The notes below the pieces were generated by a model. The model made no database searches and was not told the DNA's origin. It was given only the letters and a program-made list of their open reading frames with translations. A DNA stretch of 64,000 nucleotides from a bacterium. Its GTDB lineage: Bacteria > Patescibacteriota > Patescibacteriia > UBA9934 > GWF2-40-263. The stretch spans positions 12,444 through 76,443 of the forward strand of contig JAGVFR010000028.1 of NCBI GenBank assembly GCA_020057555.1, in the 5' to 3' direction. Below, one piece after another: positions 1 through 60,762 of this stretch. Each line of letters starts with the position of its first letter. The first letter of the stretch is position 1. The translations under genes were made by a program, and so were the position numbers.

Positions 1-622
1 CCACTGGAACGATGATCTCCTTGTGAACTTCATGACGAAGATCCTCGGTAGAAACATCGTCTGTATGCTGGGTTGCGATCGTGACGTGGACGACCTTTCC
101 GTCCTTCATCACGACCTGACTCTTGTTGTCTGGCCGAAGGAACGAGAGAGTGCCGGCTTTTCGAACATGGTCAAGGCGCATGACGAGCTGACGAGCCACG
201 TGGTAAGCGATCGGCATATAACCGTGATCGGGTGTGTCAACCGCGTATCCGACCATTGTGCCCTGATCGCCAGCGCCTCTGCGCTGAACGTTCGTGCCAA
301 GCGCGATGTCAGGCGACTGCTGAACCACGTCGACATGGACACCGCTGACCTCGTCGTCGTTGTAGCCGATCTCGCGGTGAACCCGCATTGCGAGCTCTGG
401 CAAATCGATCACACTTGCGGTCGTCATCTCACCGATGAGTGTGATGAACGTTTTGCCACCGGTCTCGATTGCGACACGGCTGTTCGGATCTCCTGCGAGC
501 GCGGCATCAAGCACAGCGTCGCTGATCTGGTCGCAGACTTTGTCCGGGTGTCCCGGCCCAACGGTCTCAACCGTGATGTTGCCCCCTCTTTGGGGGCAAA
601 TCATACACATGTCCGTTCCCAT
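1..622 (-). CDS. metK: S-adenosylmethionine synthetase, N-terminal ~207 codons. The gene runs off the window start. The supplied +strand ORF 23..868 is its antisense.
   Basis: The reverse-complement translation from an ATG at 622 reads MGTDMCMICPQRGGNITVETVGPGHPDKVCDQISDAVLDA...GAGDQGTMVGYA...LRPDNKSQV, which are canonical MetK motifs. A GGAGG ribosome-binding site lies 7 nt upstream. The segment is about 58% GC, well above the local average. Confidence 0.85.
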   Translation of the reverse strand, partial: MGTDMCMICPQRGGNITVETVGPGHPDKVCDQISDAVLDAALAGDPNSRVAIETGGKTFITLIGEMTTASVIDLPELAMRVHREIGYNDDEVSGVHVDVVQQSPDIALGTNVQRRGAGDQGTMVGYAVDTPDHGYMPIAYHVARQLVMRLDHVRKAGTLSFLRPDNKSQVVMKDGKVVHVTIATQHTDDVSTEDLRHEVHKEIIVPV

Positions 623-689
623 TCGTGCCTCCAAATTCGTGAACATTCTCACGACTTTGTCAGCTTATGGAATACACTGAAAAACGTCA

Positions 690-3292: not shown

Positions 3293-3889
3293 CTAGCTTA
3301 TCACCTTATCAATCAAACCGTACTTAACCGCATCTTCTGGATCTAGGAAGTAATCGCGCTCTGTATCAGCCGCGACCTTCGTGATTTTCTGCCTTGTATG
3401 TTTTGAAAGAATTTGATTAATGCGATCCTTAATCTTCAAAATCCGTTCAGCATGAATCTTAATATCAGTTGCCTGACCTTGAACTCCACCAAGAACTTGG
3501 TGAATCATCACTTCAGAGTTTGGAAGCGCAAAGCGCTTCCCTTTTTCTCCTGCGGCAAGCAACACAGCCGCCATTGAAGCGGCTAGCCCAACACAAATAG
3601 TTGAAACATTTGGTTTGACATATTGCATCGCATCGTAGATTGCAAGCCCGGCAGTAACAGAACCACCAGGTGAATTTACATACAGTTTGATGTCTTTTGT
3701 TTTATCTTGGCTTTCTAAAAAAAGCATTTGCGCAATCACAAGGTTTGCAACCGTGTCGTCGATTTCTGTTCCAAGAAAAATTATTCTATCTTTGAGCAAA
3801 CGAGAATAGATATCATAAGCCCGCTCACCCATGTGGGTTTTTTCTATGACAGTTGGAATAAGAATTTGGTTTGTTGGGGAGAGTGACAT
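3293..3889 (-). CDS. clpP: ATP-dependent Clp protease proteolytic subunit
   Basis: 198 aa. Motifs seen: [40 protein letters not shown] and the catalytic region [31 protein letters not shown]. Confidence 0.9.
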
Positions 3890-3953
3890 AGTGAAAAAGT
3901 GAATGAGTGATTGATTTTATATTATTTTTTCCCTTTTCTACTTTGCTACTCTA

Positions 3954-4949
3954 CTACTTTCCTACTATCTTTTCAACCCTCCAACATCCATTCTCGCCAC
4001 ATAGCAACATCGCATTTTTTATTGTGTACCCAGCAGCCCTTTCATGACCGCCTCCACCCTTTTCTCTTGCAATCGCACTTACATCGCGTGTTGAAGAACG
4101 CATACTAACCTTAACACCTTGTTCTGAAGTTTCTCGCAAAACATAAATTGTTTCTGTGTCTGTCACAAGACTTAAAAAATTCGACAATCCTTCAATCTCT
4201 TCTTCACTGACTTGATTTTCCTTAATGTCTTTTCGAGTAAGACACGTGATTACAGAATCAAAGTCTGGGTGAAAATGAAGACGCTCAAGCGCCAGACCCC
4301 AAACACGCAATGCCGCAACAGAGCGATTCTTAAATAACATACGAATAGCGTCTTGAATTCGTGCACCTGATAAAATAAGTTTGGAAGCAATATCGAGCGC
4401 GCGATTATTTGTCGCGGAGTTTGTAAACGCTGTAGTGTCAAAACAAAGTCCTGCAAACAAACAAGTCGCGGCGTCTTTGCTAATTGGTAAATGATGACTT
4501 TCAAAAAATCCGTAAACAACTTCGGCAGTTGCTGAAGCATCAACAATCACTTGATTGATGTCACCGTATAAAGAATTTGTTTTGTGATGATCGATATTGA
4601 TAATTCTCGGGTTCCCAGGAATAAGTGCGACAAGACGTTTAATAAACTCCGAATCAGAACAGTCAAACGAAACAACAAGATCAATAGTTGGATCAGAAAA
4701 AATCTCGATATTTTGAGTACAACGATTTATAAATGGAAGTGAGCTATAAACTTCAGGAACTGTGGTTGCAACATACACAAACGGTTGCTGTTTCCCATGA
4801 GTTTGCATAAAATCAACCATTGCAAGAGATGATCCTAGGCTGTCGCCATCAACACGTTCATCAGAAATAAACACAGGATTGTGTGCGTGCATCAAAGCCT
4901 CGTGGATTTGTTTATGTTTATAAGATTCCATAAGTGGGATAGTGTACAA
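3954..4949 (-). CDS. nrnA: DHH-family phosphoesterase (NrnA-like oligoribonuclease / pAp phosphatase)
   Basis: Motifs DERVDGDSLGS, IDHHKTN and a C-terminal DHHA1 GGGGHERAAG. Confidence 0.7.
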   Translation of the reverse strand: MYTIPLMESYKHKQIHEALMHAHNPVFISDERVDGDSLGSSLAMVDFMQTHGKQQPFVYVATTVPEVYSSLPFINRCTQNIEIFSDPTIDLVVSFDCSDSEFIKRLVALIPGNPRIINIDHHKTNSLYGDINQVIVDASATAEVVYGFFESHHLPISKDAATCLFAGLCFDTTAFTNSATNNRALDIASKLILSGARIQDAIRMLFKNRSVAALRVWGLALERLHFHPDFDSVITCLTRKDIKENQVSEEEIEGLSNFLSLVTDTETIYVLRETSEQGVKVSMRSSTRDVSAIAREKGGGGHERAAGYTIKNAMLLCGENGCWRVEKIVGK

Positions 4950-9820: not shown

Positions 9821-11502
9821 CCACCGCTACTAGTTCAAGCACCCAAATCATCCAAACACTCTCCCGAGGGAGGCCTCGTGAGAGTTTTCATTACGCTTGA
9901 AGTTAGACGTCCATTACAATTGAATAACATCACATAATATGAACTTCTCTGTTGTGTGATTGTAATGTTTGTTCACGCAAAGAAGCCTTCTCAGTGGCCC
10001 TTTGCAATGACAGAATCCTTTGCTCCTTCTGGAGCATTGGATCTTTACTGAGAGTTTGATCCTGGCTCAGGACGAACGCTGGCGGCAGGTCTAAGGCATG
10101 CAAGTCGAACGGTTTGTTGTTGCCCGCAAGGGTGATGGCGAATAGTGGCAAACGGGAGCGTAACACATTGGTAACCTACCCCGAGCTCGTGAATAATTCA
10201 CCGAAAGGTGGACTAATACACGATATTGATGAGGGGACGCAAGTCATTCTCATTGAAAGCTTCGGCGGCACGGGAGGGGCCTATGCATTATCAGCTAGTT
10301 GGTGAGGTAATGGCTCACCAAGGCTATGACGATTACCGGGCGCGAGAGCGTGGCCCGGCTCACTGGGACTGAGACACGGCCCAGACACCTACGGGTGGCT
10401 GCAGTCAAGAATATTCCTCAATGCACGAAAGTGTGAAGGAGCTATGCCGCGTGCCAGACGAAGGCCTTCGGGTCGTAAATGGCTTTTATAAGGGACGAAC
10501 AAATGACGGTACCTTATGAATAAGGGGCTGCTAATCACGTGCCAGCAGCAGCGGTAATACGTGAGCCCCAAGCGTTGTCCGGATTTATTGGGCGTAAAGA
10601 GTCTGTAGGCTGTTCGATGTGTCATTCGTCAAATCTTCAGGCTCAACCTGGAGGCTGCGAGTGAGACTATCGGACTCGAGAACGGGAGAGGTGCATGGAA
10701 TTGCCGGTGTAGCGGTAAAATGCGTTAATATCGGCAAGAACACCAAAGGCGAAGGCAGTGCACTGGAACGTTTCTGACGCTGAGAGACGAAAGCGTGGGT
10801 AGCGAATGGGATTAGATACCCCAGTAGTCCACGCCGTAAACTATGAATGCTAGGTTTCGGGAGTATCGACCCTCTCGGAGCCGTTCAACCAAGTTAACAC
10901 GTTAAGCATTCCGCCTGGGAAGTACGATCGCAAGATTAAAACTCAAAGGAATAGACGGGGACCCGCACAAGCGGTGGAGCGTGCGGTTTAATTCGATGGT
11001 AAGCGAGGAACCTTACCTGGGCTTGAAAGACAGCTGCAATCCTGATGAAAGTCGGGACGCCTTCGAGGGTGCTGTCTAGGTGCTGCATGGTTGTCGTCAG
11101 CTCGTGGTGTGAACTGTTCCCTTAAGTGGGGTAACGAGCGCAACCCTTATCCCGCGTTATAAGTGTCACGGGAGACTGCCCTCGCAAGAGGGAGGAAGGT
11201 GAGGATGACGTCAAATCAGCATGGCCCTTATGTCCAGGGCGACACGCGCGCTACAATGGCCGGTACAATGGGCAGCCAAATCGTAAGATGGAGCTAATCC
11301 CACAAAGCCGGTCCCAGTTCAGATTGAGGTCTGCAACTCGACCTCATGAAGCCGGAATCGCTAGTAACGGCCGATCAGCCACGCGGCCGTGAATACGTTC
11401 TCGGGTCTTGTACTCACCGCCCGTCACGTCAAGAGAGTTGGCAACACCCGAACGTCGCCGTAGGGCGACGGAAGGTGGGGCTGATGATAAGGACGAAGTC
11501 GT

Positions 11503-12325
11503 AGAGTGAATCTCATTTGTTGCGACTCTCGACAGTAATGTCGATGTTAAAATCTGACTATATCGGTGAAGCCCTATTCCCTCTCTCGGGAAGGGTAATA
11601 CCGAGGGAAGCTTTTATACGATTATGGCAAACAGAAAAGAGTATCACCTAATGCGTCAGTCGGTGCATCTCACCGATTATCAACGTTCGATGCTTATCGG
11701 AACACTTCTTGGAGATGGAAGTCTCGTTGAGACAACATCAAAAAAGAACCTCCGATTAAAAATCGAGTATTGCGATGCTCAACGTGATTATGTCTTCTGG
11801 AAATATGAATGCCTTAAATCGTTTGTCTTAACTCCTCCGAAGTTCCAAATCAGGAACCGCTCGTGGATGTTCAAGACCATTAGTCATCCAGAATTCACGA
11901 TGCTCGGCGATCTCTTCTATGAGAAACGTCGAAAAATCGTACCAGTGGAAATTATGATCCTTCTCAAGGATCCGCTTTCCCTGGCAGTGTGGTTCATGGA
12001 CGATGGATCGAAAAATAGAAATGATGGGTTGATTCTAAATACGCAATGTTTCACTAATAATGAAACAAAGCGATTGAAGAACTGCCTTTCAACTAATTTT
12101 GGCATCGACCATGTTTCACTCCAAAAAGATAAATCTGGGTGGCGCTTGTATGTTCAATCGGCATCGTCCGGTCATATGACACAAGTCATGAAGCCTTACG
12201 TCCTGCCGTGTCTAACATACAAATTGATAAGCCCTGTAGAGACTACACGTCGGCCCCGTCGCCTAATTTCGTAGGCAGGCGGGTGAAGATATAGTCCATG
12301 CCCGGAGTAATCCGTGGAATCACAG
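11503..12325 (+). mobile_element. Group I-like intron at 16S position ~1506 carrying a LAGLIDADG homing endonuclease
   Basis: The 5' exon ends in U and the intron ends in G. A candidate internal guide sequence GCGAC at ~11522 pairs with the exon end GUCGU. An 823-nt insertion splits otherwise conserved 16S sequence, and the ORF fills most of it. Confidence 0.7.
11624..12274 (+). CDS. LAGLIDADG homing endonuclease (two motifs) within the 16S intron
   Basis: LIGTLLGDGSL and LAVWFMDDGSK. Confidence 0.85.
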   Translation: MANRKEYHLMRQSVHLTDYQRSMLIGTLLGDGSLVETTSKKNLRLKIEYCDAQRDYVFWKYECLKSFVLTPPKFQIRNRSWMFKTISHPEFTMLGDLFYEKRRKIVPVEIMILLKDPLSLAVWFMDDGSKNRNDGLILNTQCFTNNETKRLKNCLSTNFGIDHVSLQKDKSGWRLYVQSASSGHMTQVMKPYVLPCLTYKLISPVETTRRPRRLIS

Positions 12326-12526
12326 AACAAGGCACCCGTAGCGGAAGCTGTGGGTGGATCACCTCCTTTTTAGGGATATTTTCTTCTGAAGCTTTATGCG
12401 GATGAGGAACATGATCCCAGGTCGAGATCAATCTATCAGGTTGGTCGGACTCGGCCCTCGGGCCGAGAAAATATTCGGACAAACATTGCAATCATAGAGT
12501 AGAGAAGGATTGAAATTCATCCTGAA

Positions 12527-21632: not shown

Positions 21633-23333
21633 CTATTCTTTTGTAACTCTTAGCACTTCTTCAAGAGTAGTCTGGCCAATAAGCACTTTCCGCAAACCAT
21701 CATAAAGCATTGATGTCATTCCATTTTCCAAAGCGATCGAGTGGATCTCATCAGCATTTTTCTTTTCCATTATCGCCTCTCGAATCTTGTCGTCCACAAC
21801 CAACACCTCAAATATCCCGATACGTCCGTAAAATCCAGTACCGTGGCATACGGCACACCCCTTGCCATGAAAAGTCAGAAGAGATTTTAAAGTTTTTTCT
21901 TTGCCAACAAGCTCATCAAAATACTGTTTAACATGAGGCACTCGTAAAATTAATTGTTCTTGAAGTTTATCCATCGCGCGCGATTGAATACAACTCATGC
22001 AAATTTTTCGAACAAGACGCTGGGCAATGACTATATTTATCGTTGAAGCAAGTAAGAAATCCTCAACACCCATATCAGTCAAACGCACAAAAGCCGTTGC
22101 AGAGTCATTAGTGTGAAGAGTTGAAAGCACTAAATGGCCTGTCATGGCCGCATTCACCGCGATGCTGGCTGTTTCTTTGTCTCTGATCTCTCCAACCATA
22201 ATAATATCCGGGTCTTGTCGAACGATGGACCGCAAACCTTTTGCAAACGTGAGGCCTGTTTTCTCATTCACCTGAATTTGATTTACTCCTTCGATATCAA
22301 ACTCAACAGGATCCTCAATGGTTGTAATGTTCACCTCGCGCTGATTTAGGATACGCAACACAGCATAGAGTGTTGTGGTTTTCCCAGACCCTGTTGGACC
22401 TGTAACCAAAATAGACCCCCATGGCTTGTGTATTACGTCTGATACTTTGTTATAATCCTGCGCGCTAAAACCCAAATCTGATATCGCGTACGCGTGAGAC
22501 TGATCTGACAACAATCGCATCACAGCTTTTTCAGCGTGCGTTGTAGGTAAAATAGATATACGAATCTCCACATCATCTCCCCAAGGGGTTTTATAGACGA
22601 TCTTGCCGTCTTGCGCCGTTCGATGCTCATCAATCGCAAGTCGAGCTAAAACTTTAAGACGTGTCATAATATTTTCATGCAGACTCACAGGCAACTCGGC
22701 AATATCATGCAAAATCCCATCTTGGCGATAGCGCACTATCGTATACTTATCTTCCGGCTCGATATGAATGTCCGAAGCTCCCCCTTGATATGCGTAATCA
22801 ATTATCTTGCTCACAAGCTCGATTGTGCGTGTGTCAGCTCCAATGTCTCCAGATGCCGAACGATCAACGATCATCTTGAAAGCTTCTTTTGGATCTGTTT
22901 GAAAAAGGTGCATGTGCGAACGCAAATCTTTTGGCGTTGCATAGGAAAACTTAACTTGTTTTCGCAAATACTTTTCAAGAGTTGTGCGTTCAAGCACGTC
23001 ATCAGGTGACGAAGTGGCGACAATAATGTCTTCTTCAGTTTGTTTTATCGGAAGAAGTTCGTGTGTACGGGCAAAAGATTCAGGAATAAGAAGCGCTGTT
23101 TTGAAATCAATATCTTTCTGACGGAGATTTACAAACGGAATATCGTACCAAGCCGCTATAAGTTGCCCGACTTCTTCGTCTCTTAGCACTCCACTTGCAA
23201 CCAATACTCCGTCAATTCCTATTTCGTTCGCTTCTTTTGTTTGCGCGGCTTTATTAAATAAATCTTCTTTCACACCACCTGAAGCCACAAGAGCTTTATA
23301 TAATTGATCTTGATTCATCGACATAGTATTCAT
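21633..23333 (-). CDS. pilB: Type IV pilus assembly ATPase PilB (GspE family)
   Basis: Walker A GPTGSGKTTTLYA. A tetracysteine motif CMSC...CAVCHGTG. Confidence 0.9.
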   Translation of the reverse strand: MNTMSMNQDQLYKALVASGGVKEDLFNKAAQTKEANEIGIDGVLVASGVLRDEEVGQLIAAWYDIPFVNLRQKDIDFKTALLIPESFARTHELLPIKQTEEDIIVATSSPDDVLERTTLEKYLRKQVKFSYATPKDLRSHMHLFQTDPKEAFKMIVDRSASGDIGADTRTIELVSKIIDYAYQGGASDIHIEPEDKYTIVRYRQDGILHDIAELPVSLHENIMTRLKVLARLAIDEHRTAQDGKIVYKTPWGDDVEIRISILPTTHAEKAVMRLLSDQSHAYAISDLGFSAQDYNKVSDVIHKPWGSILVTGPTGSGKTTTLYAVLRILNQREVNITTIEDPVEFDIEGVNQIQVNEKTGLTFAKGLRSIVRQDPDIIMVGEIRDKETASIAVNAAMTGHLVLSTLHTNDSATAFVRLTDMGVEDFLLASTINIVIAQRLVRKICMSCIQSRAMDKLQEQLILRVPHVKQYFDELVGKEKTLKSLLTFHGKGCAVCHGTGFYGRIGIFEVLVVDDKIREAIMEKKNADEIHSIALENGMTSMLYDGLRKVLIGQTTLEEVLRVTKE

Positions 23334-33976: not shown

Positions 33977-34459
33977 TTACCACTTTTTGTTTGCCATTGT
34001 TATAGCGGCCGCGAGCGCGTCTGCCGCGTCGTCTGGTTTTGGAGGTTTTGGTAAATGCAGAATTTCTTTTACCATTTTTTGCATTCCAGCTTTTGTCGCG
34101 GCACCGTTTCCTGTCATAGCTTTTTTAATTTGCGCTGGAGTAAATTCAAACACAGGAGTTCCTGATTGAGCGGCCATTAGCATTGCAACTCCGCGCGCTT
34201 CAGCAACACACATTGCAGTTGACGAACTTTTCCCAAAAAATAATTTCTCAATCGCAACAGCATGCGGTTTGTGATGCGCGAACAAGTCGCCCAAATCATT
34301 CGCCAAACTTAACAAACGATTTTCAAACGCGTCACCGCTTGTTGTAACCATAACTCCATAATCAACAAGTTCGACTGCTCCTGCATTTACGAAAATAACT
34401 CCAAATCCCATTCGGCCGTATCCCGGATCAAGACCCATCAAAATGTAACCTTGTTCCAT
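33977..34459 (-). CDS. ruvC: Holliday junction resolvase RuvC
   Basis: ILMGLDPGYGRMGFGVI...AVAIEKLFF...DAADALAAAI. Confidence 0.85.
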   Translation of the reverse strand: MEQGYILMGLDPGYGRMGFGVIFVNAGAVELVDYGVMVTTSGDAFENRLLSLANDLGDLFAHHKPHAVAIEKLFFGKSSSTAMCVAEARGVAMLMAAQSGTPVFEFTPAQIKKAMTGNGAATKAGMQKMVKEILHLPKPPKPDDAADALAAAITMANKKW

Positions 34460-41810: not shown

Positions 41811-42337
41811 AAAGAAAACCTTTGATTTAGAGGTCTTCCTTATTTATTTTGTTTGTGGGTTGAGAAAGCCATCAAAGAGTGGGTGAGTTCTTTAGATGGA
41901 AACTACCTTCTGTGCACCTGGTTGACCGTTCAGCCACAAACGAGGTGAAATATTTTGTCAAACTTTGCTCAAATTAGCTAAAAATGACGAAATGCAACGA
42001 GATAGTAACATGCGCTGGTACGAACGTCAAGTGCCATATGTGAACTTTCAGTGGATTGTCAAGAGTTAGGATTTTTTAGCTAAAAAAAGCAAAAAGACCG
42101 TTGTCAGGTCCTTTGTAAACTTGGGTTTATCCACAGCCTCCTTTTCACAAGGCTGCGAAGTGAAGCCACGAAAGAGTTACCGAGTCAAAACATCTGAGCA
42201 TGAGGAGAGAGATTTTGCCGCATTCCGTTAGGAACACAGCGATGCTCGCGGTTTTCATTCGGAAATATCGTACCCCACATCGCAGCCTTGCAAAAACAAG
42301 GCGTAATAACACTTAATATTATAGTGTTAATTTGGAA

Positions 42338-42385
42338 AAAATCAAGTAAAAGGACCAAAAGGACGAAGAAGACCAAAATGACCAA
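42338..42385 (+). repeat. Five tandem imperfect purine-rich 9-mers in the long rpoB leader region
   Basis: aaaaggacc aaaaggacg aagaagacc aaaatgacc aagaaggaa. Confidence 0.5.
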
Positions 42386-42496
42386 GAAGGAAACCCCATT
42401 TTTACTCAATTTTCTATCTACAATCTTCGATATCACGAAATATGATTGTGGAGAGAAGAAAAAGTGGGTCCAAGTGAATGGGTGGACCCTGCCCAG

Positions 42497-47893: not shown

Positions 47894-48016
47894 CAAAATC
47901 TTGAACAATGTCAAAAAAAGATAACACGAAACCTCCGCTCACTTGAGCGGTTGTTTTGTATTTGTGTTTAAAAAACCAAACAAAACCCTTGATTTTATTG
48001 GAGAAAGTAGTAAAGT

Positions 48017-48106
48017 AGCATAGTAGAAAAGTAGCAAAGGAATTCTAAAAATCTTCCATTTTACAACCATCTGCCACTCTGTTACTGTCTACTCTACTAC
48101 TACTTT
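48017..48106. promoter_or_regulatory. AAAGTAG / CTACT repeat motifs upstream of recA in both orientations. The same motif lies upstream of clpP (3936-3972) and efp (49768-49792).
   Basis: aaagtagtaaagtagcatagtagaaaagtagcaaagg ... ctgtctactctactactactttt. Confidence 0.5.
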
Positions 48107-48109
48107 TAT

Positions 48110-49135
48110 ATGGCCAAACAAATTTCAAAAGACGTTGAAACAGACGCTAAATCACGCGCGGCATTTGATGCAATCTCGCAAATCAAACAAAGATTTGGAG
48201 AAGGATCAATCATGCGCCTAGGTGAGGCAAAAACCATGCAAGTTGATGCTATAACAACAGGATGTTTATCGCTTGACCTTGCGCTTGGTGTTATGGGAGT
48301 TCCACGCGGACGAATTATCGAAATTTACGGACCTGAATCATCTGGAAAAACAACGCTAGCTCAACACATTGTCGCTGAAGTTCAAAAAACTGGCGGGCTT
48401 GCGGCGTATGTTGATGCAGAACATGCGCTTGACCCAGAGTACGCACAAAAAATTGGCGTGAACATTGACGAACTTTTTATATCCCAACCAGATAATGGAG
48501 AACAAGCTCTTGAGATTGTTGAAACACTTGTTCGTTCAAACGCAGTTGATGTGGTTGTAATTGACTCTGTCGCGGCGCTTACACCAAAAGCAGAAATCGA
48601 AGGTGAAATGGGCGACTCGCACATGGGACTTCAAGCACGCTTGATGAGCCAAGCGCTTCGTAAGCTTGCCGCAATTGTTAGTAAATCAAAAACAACTGTT
48701 ATTTTCATTAACCAAATCAGAATGAAGATTGGAGTCGTGTTTGGAAATCCAGAAACAACCCCCGGTGGAAACGCACTCAAATTTTATTCTTCTATACGAA
48801 TAGAGATTCGACGTAGCGCGCAAATAAAACAAGCGGAGGCAATTATCGGAAATAGAACAAAAGTTAAAATTGTAAAAAACAAGGTCGCTCCGCCTTTCCG
48901 CACATGCGAATTCGACATTATGTACAACGAAGGTATTTCAATTTCCGGCGACCTTATAGATGTTGGAACCCAAATGGAAGTTATCAAAAAAAGTGGAAAC
49001 AACTACTATTTCAATGAAGAAAAACTTGGTCTTGGCAGAGAAAACGCGAAACTTACTCTTCGACAAAGTCCTGAACTGATGAAAAATATCCGCGAAGAAA
49101 TTTTGAAAGTTCTTGCATTAGTACCGGAAGTGTGA
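48110..49135 (+). CDS. recA: Recombinase RecA
   Basis: [18 protein letters not shown] and the full conserved core. Confidence 0.95.
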
Positions 49136-49157: not shown

Positions 49158-49182
49158 TTAGCATTAAAAATGCTTTTTTCCT
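49158..49182 (+). terminator. recA intrinsic terminator
   Basis: agcattaaaaatgcttttttcc. Confidence 0.65.
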
Positions 49183-49201
49183 AACGGCTAACAGCTAATG
49201 G

Positions 49202-49765
49202 CTAGTTAACTCGTTCTGTATATTCTCCAGTATCTGTGTTTATCAATACATGATCGCCTTGTGTGATAAACGATGGAACTCTCACTTTCAAACCATTATC
49301 AAGTTCTGCTTCTTTCAGCACGTTTCCTGATGCTGTATCACCTTTTACAGCAGGTTCAGTATATACCACAAAATATTCAACTTTTTGTGGAAGAGTGACG
49401 CTAAGCGCTTGTCCTTCGTGCATAACTACATTGGCTTCTAAACCTTCTTTCAAATAAGGAATACTATCTTCCATATCTGCTTTTGCTATCGAAACTTGCT
49501 CGTACGTCGTGTTGTCCATGAATGTATATAAATTTCCATCATTATAGAGATACTGCATTTTTTTGTATTGAACATCCTCAAATGTAAGAGACTCGGCAGA
49601 TTTAAAGTTTGTCTCCTGAACCTTTCCGGTTTTAATGTTCTTCATTTTTGTTCTAACAAAAGAACTCCCCTTTCCTGGGCTCACTCTTTGAAAATATGTG
49701 ACCAACCATAGTTCACCATTTATATTAACAACTGTGCCTTTTTTGATATCGTTTGGGGAGGACAT
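49202..49765 (-). CDS. efp: Elongation factor P
   Basis: The VSPGKGSSFVRTKMKN loop carries the modifiable Lys. Confidence 0.9.
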   Translation of the reverse strand: MSSPNDIKKGTVVNINGELWLVTYFQRVSPGKGSSFVRTKMKNIKTGKVQETNFKSAESLTFEDVQYKKMQYLYNDGNLYTFMDNTTYEQVSIAKADMEDSIPYLKEGLEANVVMHEGQALSVTLPQKVEYFVVYTEPAVKGDTASGNVLKEAELDNGLKVRVPSFITQGDHVLINTDTGEYTERVN

Positions 49766-49795
49766 AAGTGAAAGTAGAAAAGTAGTAGAGGAAAT

Positions 49796-50770
49796 TTAGA
49801 ATAATGACGATGCAGGAAACAAGATAACGTCTTCTATTTTCGTTTGGCCGGTTAAAATCATGTGTAAACGATCAATGCCAAGCGCGTTTCCAAACGTCGG
49901 AGTTCGCACGGATGGTAGCAGAGACAATAATTCTTCGTCAATGGGATGAATTGTTTTGCCAGCTTGCTTCCTTTCTTGTGCTTCTTCTTCGAAACGTTTG
50001 CGTTGTTCATTTTCGTCTGTTAATTCTGTAAATCCGTTACACAATTCAAGACCATTCATATACAACTCAAAACGCTCGCCATATTTTCCGTCTGAAGTTA
50101 ACCGAGAAAGAGAGGCTTGATATTTTGGATAGTCGTATACGAAAACATTTCCAGAAAGATTCGGCTCAATTTTTGTCAAAAACAAACGATAGAATAAATC
50201 GCTTTCTGTATCATTTGATGTTGTGTGAATTCCGTGACTAGCACAAGCGTCAAAAAGCATTTTGCAATCAGCGTTGTCTAAATCAATTTTAATGTATTGT
50301 AAAAATAAATCTCTCATTCGTTTTTTTTCAAATTTTGTATTTCGGATTTCTTCGTATTTCGGATTTCTAATTTCGAATTTAACTAGCTCAATCAACTCTT
50401 CCGTCTCCTCCATACAAACCTGATAATCAGCTCCTTGTTGATACCATTCGAGCATACTAAATTCTGGATTGTGATTTCCACCAAACGTTTCATCATTTCG
50501 AAAAACTTTTGTAATAGTAAAAATTTTCTCCAAACCATGTCCTAAAAGTTTTTTCATTGAATACTCTGGGCTGGTGATAAGTGCTGCGCGATGTTCAATT
50601 CCATTTGATTCTCGAACGATTGTTTCAAATGGCGAAAGATTGGGTTCCATTCCAGGTGACTGTACAAGAATCGGTGTTTCAACTTCCAAATATCCTCGCG
50701 AATTAAAAAACGACCGAATGGAGTCATTCATCATTTGTCGTTCATGAATGATGTTTCCAATCGGCCGCAT
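49796..50770 (-). CDS. epmA: EF-P beta-lysine ligase EpmA (truncated class II LysRS paralogue)
   Basis: 324 aa. Class II aaRS core. Sits beside efp. Confidence 0.75.
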   Translation of the reverse strand: MRPIGNIIHERQMMNDSIRSFFNSRGYLEVETPILVQSPGMEPNLSPFETIVRESNGIEHRAALITSPEYSMKKLLGHGLEKIFTITKVFRNDETFGGNHNPEFSMLEWYQQGADYQVCMEETEELIELVKFEIRNPKYEEIRNTKFEKKRMRDLFLQYIKIDLDNADCKMLFDACASHGIHTTSNDTESDLFYRLFLTKIEPNLSGNVFVYDYPKYQASLSRLTSDGKYGERFELYMNGLELCNGFTELTDENEQRKRFEEEAQERKQAGKTIHPIDEELLSLLPSVRTPTFGNALGIDRLHMILTGQTKIEDVILFPASSLF

Positions 50771-54871: not shown

Positions 54872-55927
54872 TCAAACTCCAACTCTGAAATGACATGTAT
54901 CTCCATCTTGCATCACATAATCTTTTCCTTCAACTCGTAACTTCCCTGCTTCACGCGCTCCAGCTTCGCCTAAATCAACAAAATCTTTCCAAAAAATTAC
55001 TTCAGCACGGATAAATGCTTTTTCAAAATCAGTGTGAATTGTTCCAGCGGCTTGCGGCGCTTTTGTACCGCGCGTAATTGTCCATGCTCGCGATTCTTTT
55101 TCGCCTGATGTAAAAAAAGTGATCAGATTCAAAAGCTCGTAACATTTTGTGATAAGACGATCAAGACCGGATTGCTCAAGTCCAAGTTCTTTTAAAAAAA
55201 CGGCTTGCTCATTTTCTGGCATTTCAACAATTTCGGATTCGAGTTTTATTGAGAGAGAAATGGAAGAAAGGGAGGCAATGGAAGAAAGGGTTGAATTTTC
55301 TGAAACATTCATCACGTACAAAATCGGTTTGAGAGTGAGCAAATTCAAAGACTTGGCAATTTTCAATTCATCCTCGTTTAAAACGACTGTGTTTGCCATT
55401 TTGCCTTGAGAAAGAACTTCAAAAATACGAGCGATAACGGATTCCTCCAGTTCAAGCTCTTTTGTTTTGCCAGATTTCATTTTTCCACGAACAGTATCTA
55501 GACGTTTTTCTGTTGCAGTCAAATCCGCCATTGCAAGTTCTGTTTCGATTGTCTCGATATCACGCTTAGGATCAACAGAACCTTCCACATGATGAACGTT
55601 AGAGTCTTCAAAAGCTCGAACAACGTGCACGATCATGTCCACTTCGCGGATGTTTGTTAAAAATTTATTGCCTAGTCCTTCTCCTTTATGAGCACCCTTT
55701 ACCAAACCTGCGATGTCAACAAATTCAATCGCGGTTGGAATTGTTTTTTGTGATATACTCACTCCTGTAAGTTCGTGAAGCCGAAAGTCAGGAACTTCAA
55801 CAACACCGATATTTGGTTCAATTGTGCAAAACGGAAAATTTGAACAATCGACTTGCTTTTTTGTGAGCGTCTTAAACAAAGTTGATTTCCCGACGTTTGG
55901 AAGTCCAACAATTCCTACTTGTAGCAT
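54872..55927 (-). CDS. ychF: Ribosome-binding ATPase YchF (Obg family)
   Basis: [14 protein letters not shown], a C-terminal TGS domain. Confidence 0.85.
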
Positions 55928-58485: not shown

Positions 58486-60762
58486 TTATTCAATCACTTC
58501 TGGCAGAGCTGATGATAGTTTTCCCTTGAGGAGTCTGTCAAGACGAGATTTCGCAATCACGTTGTCAGGATTCAATTCTATAACTTTTTGCACTTGTTCA
58601 ATTGCCGCATCCACATTCCCTTCTTTCTCAAAAATAGTAGCAAGAAACCATCGCGCATTGCTAAACGACGGAACAAGCGAAACAGCATAACTTAATGCGT
58701 TTTTTGCTCGCGCTAAATCACCTTCGCTATTTCTTCGCATGTACAACTGACCCAACTGAAACGCAACACCAACATCTTTCATGTTATATTTCGCAACGCT
58801 TTCCATTTTACCAATTGCGTCACTTAGTCTTCCCTGCTGTTCATACAATAGCGCAAGTTGGTAATGAGCCGGCGCGTAATTTGCTTTAAGTTCGATCACT
58901 TTTTGAAATGTTTTTTCAGCCAAAATACTAGGATCGTCAACACCTGTCACAACAGTTTTCTTTTTGACTATTGCTAAATAAGTAATTCCAAGTTCATTCA
59001 AAACCGCAGGATTTAAAGGTTCAAGCTTAATTGCTTTTTGATACGACTCAATAGAAAACTTTGCGGCATCTGGAACAAGATCAATGAGTTCTCTGTAAAC
59101 CAAACCGCGCTCAAGCCAATTTAATGTATTGCGTGGAGAAAGTTCTGTTGCGCGAACAGACGCGTTCACAGACGAAGCAATCAAAGACTGTAGATATTGG
59201 CGATCTTCAAGTGTAAGTTCTGTTTTTGAATCCATTGTCGTTAGCTTTTCATTCGCGCGTAAAAGAAGGGCTTGAGAAAGTGTCCGATAAAACCGATCAT
59301 CAAAACGATTAAGCGTAGCGGCTGTATCAAGAAAAGCAACAATCTGCGTAAGTTGCACATCTTTTCGATCAGAACGCACAGCTTTTGCAAATGCGATTTC
59401 TGCAATATAACGCTGGGTTGTAAAAAATATTCCAACCAAAAACGCGAGAGTTCCAATAGCAAGAATAATTAAAGATACTATTCTAACCCATGACTTGCCT
59501 TTACTCTCTATCATTGTTTTTGGAAAAATCCGAGATGCAATCAAACCGGAAAAAAGGAAAAGAAGCCAAACTAGTGTGAGGTTGAATGGGTACAAATCAG
59601 CAATGACGATCAAAGTCATCCATGGAATCAACACAACAAAAATTTGCATGCTCTCTTCTCGTGAATTACTTTTCATCCAGACAACAACACTCCAAACACC
59701 AAGCGCAAATAGGAAAATGAAAAACAAATTCAAACCAAGATAACCAATTGTTGGAAGAAGAGTTAGAAAATAAGACGATGCTCTATCAAAACGTGTATTG
59801 TAAAACTCTGTTTGATTTATTTCTGGACCATGAAATGTTGCAAAGTCAAAAGCATATGTTCCGGGTCCTGAACCAAAAAGTGGAGAAAAGTTATCGAATG
59901 TTTTTTGCGCAACGGCTGTACTGGTCGCAGAGTTTGGAGCAAGTTCAGCTGGAATTGAAATAGACAACGGCGACTGTAAAAAGAACCAAAATGGTAAAGC
60001 AAGAATAACTAGCACGATTGGTAAAATAGATCGAAAACTATTTGTAAGATCACGAATGCGAGGAAGAATAAAAATAAATAGAATAACGTGGCCAAGCACA
60101 ATCACAAACCACAGCAACCAGTAATCAACTAATAGAAGATAAACAAATGTGATGATCGGTAGACAAACTAGGGCGATGCGTTCAATAACACTGGCAAGTT
60201 TTCTGTGCATCCATTCTTTTGTGTGAAACAACCAAAACGCGCTTGCAAACACACTCATCACAATCAGATAGATTCCCGCAGAATTGATAGTGCCTATTGT
60301 ATTAAAAGAGTTGTTTTGTGTGAACAAACTAATTACAGAAAAAAGACCTGTAAGAACAGCGGATAACAAAAGTAAAAAGTGAATTGTGCGATGTTTGTCA
60401 GACAAAACGTTTATAACAAGATAAAACAAAACAACAAATCCAAATGTCGTGAGCACGCTGGTGTATTCTTGTGAGGAAGTCCCGACCAAGGAAAGAAATG
60501 GCGAGCTTGAATAAAATGCTGAAACAACAACCGCAATAAGATACAACAATGGCAAAACATTGATCCACCCACGACGAAAAGTAAAACGTTTTTGTGCCAT
60601 CATTCCAGCAATCCAAGTAAGCGCGGCCGCAAAAGTAATCACTAAAAAGAATGTTTGTTTGTTCAATTCAAGAAAATCAATCGTAAATGGAAGGAAAAAA
60701 AGCGGAACAAAAAAAATGTTTATATACAAAAGCCAACGGGTCACAGAAAAAAGTCGGTTCAT
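58486..60762 (-). CDS. Polytopic membrane protein (O-antigen ligase / Wzy-like) fused to C-terminal TPR repeats
   Basis: 758 aa. More than 10 TM helices, then TPR-like repeats (...AHYQLALLYEQQGRLSDAIGK...). Confidence 0.6.
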   Translation of the reverse strand: MNRLFSVTRWLLYINIFFVPLFFLPFTIDFLELNKQTFFLVITFAAALTWIAGMMAQKRFTFRRGWINVLPLLYLIAVVVSAFYSSSPFLSLVGTSSQEYTSVLTTFGFVVLFYLVINVLSDKHRTIHFLLLLSAVLTGLFSVISLFTQNNSFNTIGTINSAGIYLIVMSVFASAFWLFHTKEWMHRKLASVIERIALVCLPIITFVYLLLVDYWLLWFVIVLGHVILFIFILPRIRDLTNSFRSILPIVLVILALPFWFFLQSPLSISIPAELAPNSATSTAVAQKTFDNFSPLFGSGPGTYAFDFATFHGPEINQTEFYNTRFDRASSYFLTLLPTIGYLGLNLFFIFLFALGVWSVVVWMKSNSREESMQIFVVLIPWMTLIVIADLYPFNLTLVWLLFLFSGLIASRIFPKTMIESKGKSWVRIVSLIILAIGTLAFLVGIFFTTQRYIAEIAFAKAVRSDRKDVQLTQIVAFLDTAATLNRFDDRFYRTLSQALLLRANEKLTTMDSKTELTLEDRQYLQSLIASSVNASVRATELSPRNTLNWLERGLVYRELIDLVPDAAKFSIESYQKAIKLEPLNPAVLNELGITYLAIVKKKTVVTGVDDPSILAEKTFQKVIELKANYAPAHYQLALLYEQQGRLSDAIGKMESVAKYNMKDVGVAFQLGQLYMRRNSEGDLARAKNALSYAVSLVPSFSNARWFLATIFEKEGNVDAAIEQVQKVIELNPDNVIAKSRLDRLLKGKLSSALPEVIE

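Follow-up and report, generated by a model that had tools for sequence, protein, structure and literature searches.

Tandem 8-bp repeat arrays over the clpP and recA promoters of a Patescibacterium

In an uncultured, groundwater-type Patescibacterium, AAAGTAG repeats precede clpP and recA and occupy the epmA-efp spacer: what are they, and do they form a shared regulatory site? The stretch in question, here called the window, covers 64,000 nucleotides of contig JAGVFR010000028.1 (assembly GCA_020057555.1), and the original prediction took the repeats for a candidate operator, read by a shared regulator of heat-shock or SOS-like type, or for a UP-type promoter element. Transcription control is hardly known in the Patescibacteria (Candidate Phyla Radiation, CPR), which have very few recognisable regulators, and a literature search found no paper on the AAAGTAG array motif. 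We found that the repeats form arrays with a strict 8-bp period, that the arrays at clpP and recA are set in the same register on conserved promoters, and that they are a real, lineage-specific cis element embedded in promoters. Whether the arrays are read as operators or as self-expanding repeats, they provide no evidence for a heat-shock or SOS regulon.

Periodic arrays at clpP, recA, and efp

The identities of clpP (3293-3889, minus strand), recA (48110-49135, plus strand), efp (49202-49765, minus strand, with the ATG at 49765-49763), and epmA (49796-50770, minus strand, with the stop codon at 49796-49798) were confirmed by NCBIfam. The repeat unit is A-[A/T/G]-A-G-T-A-G-N with a period of exactly 8 bp, and the arrays hold 3 to 4 full units, the last unit always being a variant, A(A/G)AGG(G/A). 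The distal array of clpP is located on the minus strand at 3929-3968 and consists of 4.5 units of 8 bp, ATAGTAGG AAAGTAGT AGAGTAGC AAAGTAGA AAAGGGAA; Tandem Repeats Finder (TRF) reports 4.2 copies with a period of 8 at 3933-3966. A proximal, inverted array is located at 3882-3913 on the plus strand, antisense to clpP, and contains AGTGA four times (AGTGACAT AGTGAAAA AGTGAATG AGTGATTG; TRF 3881-3914, period 8), such that the start codon of clpP (3889-3887) falls in its first unit. The distal array of recA is found on the plus strand at 48004-48043 (AAAGTAGT AAAGTAGC ATAGTAGA AAAGTAGC AAAGGAAT; TRF 48004-48039, period 8, 4.5 copies) and is conserved in two relatives, L258 and L082 (related genomes and metagenome contigs are referred to by such L numbers). 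Its proximal, inverted counterpart is located on the minus strand at 48075-48107, where the core AAAGTAGTAGTAGAGTAG (48107-48089) is followed by the degenerate units ACAGTAAC and AGAGTGGC, and stops 2 nt short of the recA ATG (48110). The spacer between epmA and efp contains an array at 49771-49794, on the plus strand and antisense to both genes (AAAGTAGA AAAGTAGT AGAGGAAA), which begins 5 nt from the efp ATG; efp has only the inverted copy on the side of the start codon. Direct and inverted blocks in the window are separated by 25-45 bp. The stop codon of nrnA, TAG (3956-3954), is also one of the TAG triplets in the distal array of clpP, and array units supply the codons for the final residues of NrnA. 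The 8-nt spacing of TAG in 3929-3968 and 48004-48043 places stop codons in all three frames within 24 nt.

The motifs reported by the original prediction are thus present at all three sites, but the position given for recA (48017-48053) is about 13 nt off, and the strict 8-bp period, the fourfold AGTGA array at the clpP start codon, and the overlap with the -10 hexamers go beyond what was described there. As a single word, AAAGTAG is not enriched in the window, with 11 occurrences as compared to 7.1 expected. Its clustering, however, is highly non-random, with about 0.07 to 1 such matches expected by chance. The sequence AGTAGNNNAGTAG occurs exactly eight times, in each case at an array site, while shuffled sequences are expected to contain 0.97 copies even if one mismatch is allowed. 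Three or more AGTAG within 16 nt are found at only four places (clpP, the distal and the inverted array of recA, and epmA-efp). An exhaustive search of the window for exact 5-mers repeated three times at an 8-bp period identified only AGTGA (3882), CTACT (3938), and AGTAG (48006), while shuffles give a mean of 0.07 such arrays. Both the cluster search and the search for periodic arrays return these sites alone, in line with the claim that the motif occurs nowhere else in the window.

Promoters beneath the arrays and their evolution

A consensus scan placed the clpP promoter on the minus strand at 3976-3948, with a -35 element, TTGAAA (3976-3971), a 17-nt spacer, and a -10 element, TAGAGT (3953-3948). 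The TTGAAA hexamer is common to L206, L329, L207, L330, and L331, the NrnA proteins of which show 92% (L206), 74% (L329), 70% (L207), and 65% (L330 and L331) identity, and a -10 element follows after 16-17 nt: TAAAGT in L206 and L207, TAAGGT in L329, and TAAAAT in L330 and L331. The spacer keeps its length of 17 nt (16 nt in L207) as its sequence turns unit-like, and in the window the spacer, the -10 element, and about +1 to +20 are all made of array sequence. For recA, an alignment of five genomes placed the promoter on the plus strand at 47989-48016, with TTGATT (47989-47994), a 16-nt spacer, and TAAAGT (48011-48016). The -35 element is invariant in the five genomes, and the -10 column reads TAAAGT, TAAAGT, TAAGAT, TAAAAT, and TAGAAT. 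A terminator-like hairpin (47935-47950) with a T-run is located on the plus strand at 47935-47960, 3′ of a gene for a RodZ-like helix-turn-helix (HTH) protein; since it resembles an intrinsic terminator, recA needs a promoter of its own downstream of it.

The arrays of clpP and recA share the register GAAAGTAG-T-A(A/G)AGTAG-C-A(A/T)AGTAG-A-AAAG with the -10 element inside, and in both cases the -10 hexamer TA(A/G)AGT arises at the one unit junction where N is T. They extend from roughly -30 to +20, from the spacer between the -35 and -10 elements onward. Both promoter calls have independent support from the consensus scan and from the conservation of the -35/-10 pairs across 5 to 6 relatives, some of which are free of arrays.

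The arrays are restricted to the closest relatives. They are kept in L258 (~90% nucleotide identity), L082, and L206, with one unit of difference between L206 and the window at clpP. In L083, L084, and L330 (~57 kb examined), the promoters are kept and the AGTAG arrays are absent; the marker proteins of these relatives show 84% (L083) and 67% (L084) identity for the RodZ-like protein, and 65% (L330) for the NrnA-like protein. The clpP mRNA of L330 is predicted to be nearly leaderless. The array between epmA and efp is not conserved in L082, L083, and L084, and the spacer is only 12 nt long in L084. No motif was found upstream of recA in 80 genome loci with 59-75% RecA identity.

Within the closest relatives, the regulatory region of recA is under purifying selection. 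At 47961-48109, the window is 96% identical to L258, as compared to 77% at 4-fold sites, and 91% identical to L082, as compared to 70% at 4-fold sites (P about 1e-10 for the whole region versus 4-fold sites). The array alone is 92% identical to L258 (P = 0.018) and to L082 (P = 0.002), and the N positions that separate the units change more often than the core positions (Fisher P = 0.024).

A scan of metagenomes with a pattern of three units followed by AAAG gave at least 120 matches. Among the matches listed, most are unrelated, pure 8-bp tandem repeats in organisms of 29-68% GC, and about ten are low-GC contigs with imperfect arrays like those of the window. In L327, from Hainich groundwater, an array with 35 of 36 positions identical to the clpP module is located 5′ of a type IV secretion system (T4SS) pilin gene, and an inverted array comes next, at the ATG. 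L252 contains two modules and 7-bp GTAG arrays that abut cupredoxin genes. The array of L216 adjoins a dsbA-like gene, that of L250 is placed between thyA and folA, that of L256 between ribE and ribH, and that of L234 between atpE and atpF, in inverted orientation and abutting atpF. The directional module ending in A(A/G)AGG(G/A) thus occurs in either orientation relative to the gene, with its polarity intact (efp; atpE-atpF in L234). L252 also contains a near-perfect palindrome (434-523) with arms of ~38 nt and GTAG-rich 7-bp units, which ends 4 nt before the start of an open reading frame (ORF) at 527-1810. The 21-base module pattern had no match in viral contigs, and a looser 20-mer gave chance matches or coding repeats only; a mobile or phage promoter was rejected on the grounds that the module pattern is unmatched in viral contigs.

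A proposed cooperative operator and the alternatives

The explanation that we tentatively favour, at somewhat less than even chances, is that the arrays serve, at the level of DNA, as an operator read by a protein that binds repeats cooperatively. The 3 to 5 tandem, direct 8-bp repeats laid over sigma-70-type core promoters would then be cis elements at the level of DNA, to which an oligomeric protein would bind cooperatively, with one unit read by each subunit or dimer. The bound protein may occlude the RNA polymerase, in which case the array would be the operator of a repressor. At clpP and recA, the second, inverted, and more degenerate array that abuts the start codon would be part of the same arrangement, and the sites would belong to a lineage-specific, genome-wide set that extends beyond stress genes. 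The presence of array modules in both orientations argues for an entity at the level of DNA rather than RNA. Protein binding, repression, and the identity of the protein are inferred from these features. If the arrays are operators, they could serve as DNA bait for a lineage-specific global regulator, which would join the few repressors that recognise tandem units of 7-8 bp.

Several observations weigh against an operator. The regulator sought among the window proteins was not found: the only candidates were the RodZ-like XRE protein, KhpA, and a receiver-only response regulator, and no mraZ or dcw genes are present in the window or in the examined loci. The RodZ-like gene and khpA were rejected as they are also present in relatives that lack the arrays. 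With a period of 8 bp, neighbouring units do not face the same side of the helix, an arrangement known only for MetJ-like and omega-like binders and not for MraZ, with its 10-bp boxes. The arrays turn over rapidly, with none in relatives at 84% marker identity or less, and the unit at clpP varies by lineage, from AGTAG in the window and L206 to AGTGG in L329, a degenerate form in L207, and none in L330. At efp, the corresponding site of L082 and L083 holds another repeat family, AAAGGACC/AGAGGTCT. This turnover and the differing units suggest that short-period arrays are generated and replaced quickly in the clade, and other short-period arrays with unrelated units in the clade make a mutational origin plausible. 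From contig to contig, the target genes share no coherent function, some sites are placed between the cistrons of conserved operons, and the other array-bearing contigs are metagenome DNA without established taxonomy.

These points lead to the main rival explanation, which we regard as a serious possibility but on balance improbable, namely that the arrays are self-expanding intergenic repeats without a dedicated regulator. Short units of 7-9 bp would multiply by replication slippage and inverted arms would arise by quasi-palindrome or template-switch copying, seeded by local words such as TAAAGT-AG in the -10 region or AAG TAG, the Lys and stop codons that close nrnA. The arrays would persist because they carry the -10 element and lengthen a G-poor leader, and the likeness between loci would reflect similar seeds or ectopic conversion. 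Consistently, several unit families exist: the window has AAAGTAG, AAAGTGA, and AAAAGGACC, the efp site of L082 and L083 has AAAGGACC, and the rpoB-rpoC spacer of L083 has AGGTTTT/AAAACCT. The AAAAGGACC array is confined to the window genome, and the window and L206 are a single unit apart at clpP. Promoters of ancestral-like type have the sequence TAAAGTAG or TAAAATAG, nrnA terminates in ...AAG TAG or ...AAG TGA, and the 5′ untranslated region (5′UTR) of clpP grows stepwise from a leaderless-like state in L330 to ~58 nt in the window. However, slippage does not readily explain why one 7-mer is found at four places in 64 kb, nor why a 35-nt module is nearly identical between clpP in the window and unrelated loci in L327, L252, and L216. 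In addition, the array is conserved beyond the neutral rate and the constraint follows the unit structure, and the conversion of the clpP spacer to unit sequence at an unchanged length is better accounted for by selection for sites than by slippage alone. If the repeats are nevertheless self-expanding, they show that promoters and 5′ leaders remodel fast in reduced genomes, and they call for caution when regulons are inferred from motifs in metagenome-assembled genomes (MAGs).

An element that acts in the RNA is unlikely. In such a scenario, the purine-rich array in the 5′UTR would pair with the pyrimidine-rich array at the start codon, and the hairpin would gate translation, as a thermometer or protein switch, or stabilise the mRNA. 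The succession of array, inverted array, and ATG does recur at recA, clpP, L327, L285, and L252, and the whole recA region folds at -26.8 kcal/mol (z = -3.2), with z = -2.3 in L327. But the conserved -10 element is located inside the distal array, which leaves half of the 5′ arm upstream of the predicted transcription start site (TSS), and transcripts folded from that site are unremarkable (z = -0.21 for recA and -0.35 for clpP); a hairpin has little to recommend it if transcription starts where the conserved -10 element predicts. The full clpP region reaches only z = -1.6 and has A.C mismatches in paired units, the efp leader is unstructured (z = 0.13) and has no partner array, a substitution in L258 at 48032 disrupts a predicted pair without compensation, and modules also occur in the opposite orientation. 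We consider it more improbable still that the copies at the start codons (CUACUUU or UCACUUU in the mRNA) serve as initiation leaders, poor in G and rich in pyrimidines, for genes without a Shine-Dalgarno (SD) sequence; they would act as S1-type enhancers in the manner of the E. coli atpE leader, separate from the arrays on the promoter side. At -30 to -1, no other leader among the 57 genes in the window is as ACT-rich and G-poor as those of recA, efp, and clpP, most genes lack an SD sequence despite a canonical anti-SD, the lack of structure in the efp leader is in accordance with this role, and similar tracts abut the start codons of atpF and cupredoxin genes in other contigs. The purine-strand arrays at the promoters, the strict 8-bp period, and the inverted copies that keep the polarity of the module, including its AGAGG end, are left unexplained by it, though the copies near the start codons may make some contribution to SD-independent initiation.

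Least probable of all, and by our estimate hardly credible, is the original proposal of a heat-shock or SOS operator for clpP, recA, and efp, or of a UP element. What is supported is a real, shared, non-random cis element in the regulatory DNA of the three genes, in an operator-like position at clpP and recA, with no rival for that role among canonical CtsR, CIRCE, and LexA boxes. The stress regulon is not supported: no array is present at hsp20, ruvC (33977-34459), ssb, or, in L082, dnaJ, the orthologous recA, clpP, and efp genes of slightly more distant relatives are array-free, and the arrays in other contigs flank unrelated housekeeping genes. The type IV pilus genes and metK of the window are likewise free of arrays. 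A UP element is at odds with the position of the arrays at -30 to +20, downstream of the -35 element instead of at -40 to -60. CtsR of the Firmicutes also uses a direct heptad repeat that overlaps the clpP promoter, but its operator, RGTCAAA-NAN-RGTCAAA, differs in sequence and has a 10-bp period; at 3 mismatches it had 17 matches in the window, as compared to 14 expected, and none near 3890-3980. CIRCE, the HrcA operator (TTAGCACTC-N9-GAGTGCTAA), had no match in the window at up to 3 mismatches, and the LexA box of the Gram-positive type, CGAAC-N4-GTTCG, was absent from 47894-48110 and at chance level in the window.

Returning to the proposed cooperative operator, three known systems offer partial parallels: MetJ and omega as analogues in function, and MraZ as the nearest precedent in sequence. 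MetJ is a ribbon-helix-helix (RHH) protein that binds 8-bp metboxes, of which 2 to 5 imperfect tandem copies are found on the promoters of unlinked operons, with one dimer bound cooperatively to each unit. When compared with this pattern, the arrays here share the tandem 8-bp units, the 2-5 copies, and the overlap with promoters. However, the metbox, AGACGTCT, is palindromic and AAAGTAG is not, and MetJ is a proteobacterial regulator of a coherent methionine regulon, unlike the set of clpP, recA, and efp, with metK (left of hsp20) array-free. The omega repressor of inc18 plasmids binds cooperatively, also as an RHH protein, to 7 to 10 copies of a non-palindromic 7-bp heptad placed in direct and inverted orientation on promoters, but those heptads are contiguous, plasmid-borne, and of another sequence, whereas the blocks here are 25-45 bp apart. 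MraZ is an oligomeric regulator with a SpoVT/AbrB fold that acts on the dcw promoter. In M. genitalium, its boxes consist of three AAAGTGT-N3 units followed by AAAGTGG, and transcription starts within box 1; the protein binds cooperatively, with a strength that depends on copy number (PMC12957436). The arrays of the window resemble these boxes in their tandem direct repeats (3 to 4), A-rich 5′ flank, units (AAAGTAG, AAAGTGA, and AAAGTGG), and predicted TSS inside the array. They differ in the period, which is 10 bp for MraZ (6-nt gaps between GTGK cores) as compared to 8 bp here, in the core, which is GTG(G/T) for MraZ and mostly GTAG here, with GTGA at 3882-3913 and GTGG only in L329, and in the genes, since the known target is mraZ/dcw and not clpP, recA, or efp.

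A more specific version of the operator must be considered doubtful: the clade, which is Uhrbacteria-like, might use an undescribed global regulator, such as a divergent MraZ or other SpoVT/AbrB-type protein or an RHH-type protein, that would read AAAGT(A/G)(G/A) in an 8-bp register over the -10 element and TSS of many housekeeping promoters, together with the inverted array at the start codon, and paralogous families such as AAAGGACC may be read by related proteins.

The arrays were also compared with mobile and other repeated elements. REP (repetitive extragenic palindromic), BIME (bacterial interspersed mosaic element), and Correia sequences are short, lineage-specific, multi-copy intergenic elements that occur in either orientation, often as inverted pairs and within operons, turn over fast, and can supply promoter elements, and the REP head contains GTAG. 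In a test of this likeness, the arrays proved to be multi-copy, intergenic, lineage-specific, and present in either orientation, as are also miniature inverted-repeat transposable elements (MITEs). Such elements are, however, palindromic or have terminal inverted repeats, while these are direct 8-bp arrays that have apparently grown in place on existing promoters, and no linked RAYT or transposase is present here. Insertion of a MITE was rejected, as there is no clean indel relative to the relatives without arrays and the -35/-10 spacing is preserved. TRAP and HutP bind RNA sites with UAG spacings of 2-3 nt and 4 nt, respectively; such UAG-repeat sites were rejected, since the 5 nt between UAGs here is a misfit and half of each array is located upstream of the predicted TSS. 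Pairing of AAAGUAG with an altered anti-SD was also discarded, as the 3′ end of the 16S rRNA is canonical and no AAAGTAG-like stretch is present in the 16S rRNA. The genome-reduced Mollicutes have tandem promoters, repeated -10-like boxes close together, and simplified promoters (PMC5138195). The arrays differ from these in that only one or two units of each form TAnnnT and in that they reach well past the -10 element.

Source lineage and neighbouring elements

The RecA protein shows at most 75% identity to species representatives, the top ones being Patescibacteria MAGs, and the nearest matches of the neighbouring RodZ-like and NrnA-like proteins are from “Candidatus Uhrbacteria” MAGs. The 16S rRNA gene (10044-12370) contains an intron-like insertion of ~830 nt near its 3′ end (about 11500-12320), which carries an ORF (11624-12274) for a LAGLIDADG_2 homing endonuclease, and its 3′ end has a canonical anti-SD at 12357-12368 (GATCACCTCCTT at 12357). 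No 23S rRNA gene neighbours the 16S rRNA gene. Most of the genes in the window have no SD sequence, and at several gene starts (e.g. 21633-23333, 54872-55927, and 58486-60762) a TATAAT-like hexamer is found no more than ~10 nt from the ATG, a pattern that suggests leaderless mRNAs or mRNAs with very short leaders. The gene for hsp20 is located at 667-1104 on the plus strand next to the 3′ part of metK (1-646, minus strand), and the mechanically called ORF at 23-868 is spurious. The EF-P lysine aminoacylase gene, epmA, is placed directly 5′ of efp (49202-50770), closing an rpsF-ssb-rpsR cluster in a Patescibacterium, and 3.4 copies of CTAACGG are found at 49181-49204 between the convergent recA and efp genes.

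A second family of units is represented by 4.8 copies of AAAAGGACC at 42348-42391 on the plus strand, which read GGTCCTTTT on the transcribed strand and are located directly 5′ of a -35 element. The latter belongs to a near-consensus promoter on the minus strand upstream of rpoB, TTGATT (42345-42340)-N16-TATAAT (42323-42318). The array occupies a position like that of a UP element. L258 and L082 have no such array at the corresponding site, but units of the same type fill the epmA-efp spacer of L082 and L083. Downstream of this promoter follow ~500 nt of non-coding DNA (41811-42345, minus strand), the 5′ part of which, GGCTGCGATGTGGGGTACGATATTTCCGAATGAAAACCGCGAG, is conserved in L258, L082, L083, and L084; the stretch matched no family in Rfam and is a candidate for an unannotated RNA or a leader. 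The spacer between rpoB and rpoC is 70 nt in L083 (3218-3287) as compared to 2 nt in the window, and forms a hairpin of short repeats (AGGTTTT... / ...CCCAAAACCT; AGGTTTT/AAAACCT) that abuts the rpoC start codon. An unrelated family, (AGTAGGAA)n-AGTGGACATTAAGG, was found in L214, L262, L270, L295, and ~15 more metagenome loci, several of them from the Ga0256407, Ga0310690, and JAEEG* assemblies. Its members often occur as inverted pairs on a contig and look like the ends of transposons or MITEs.

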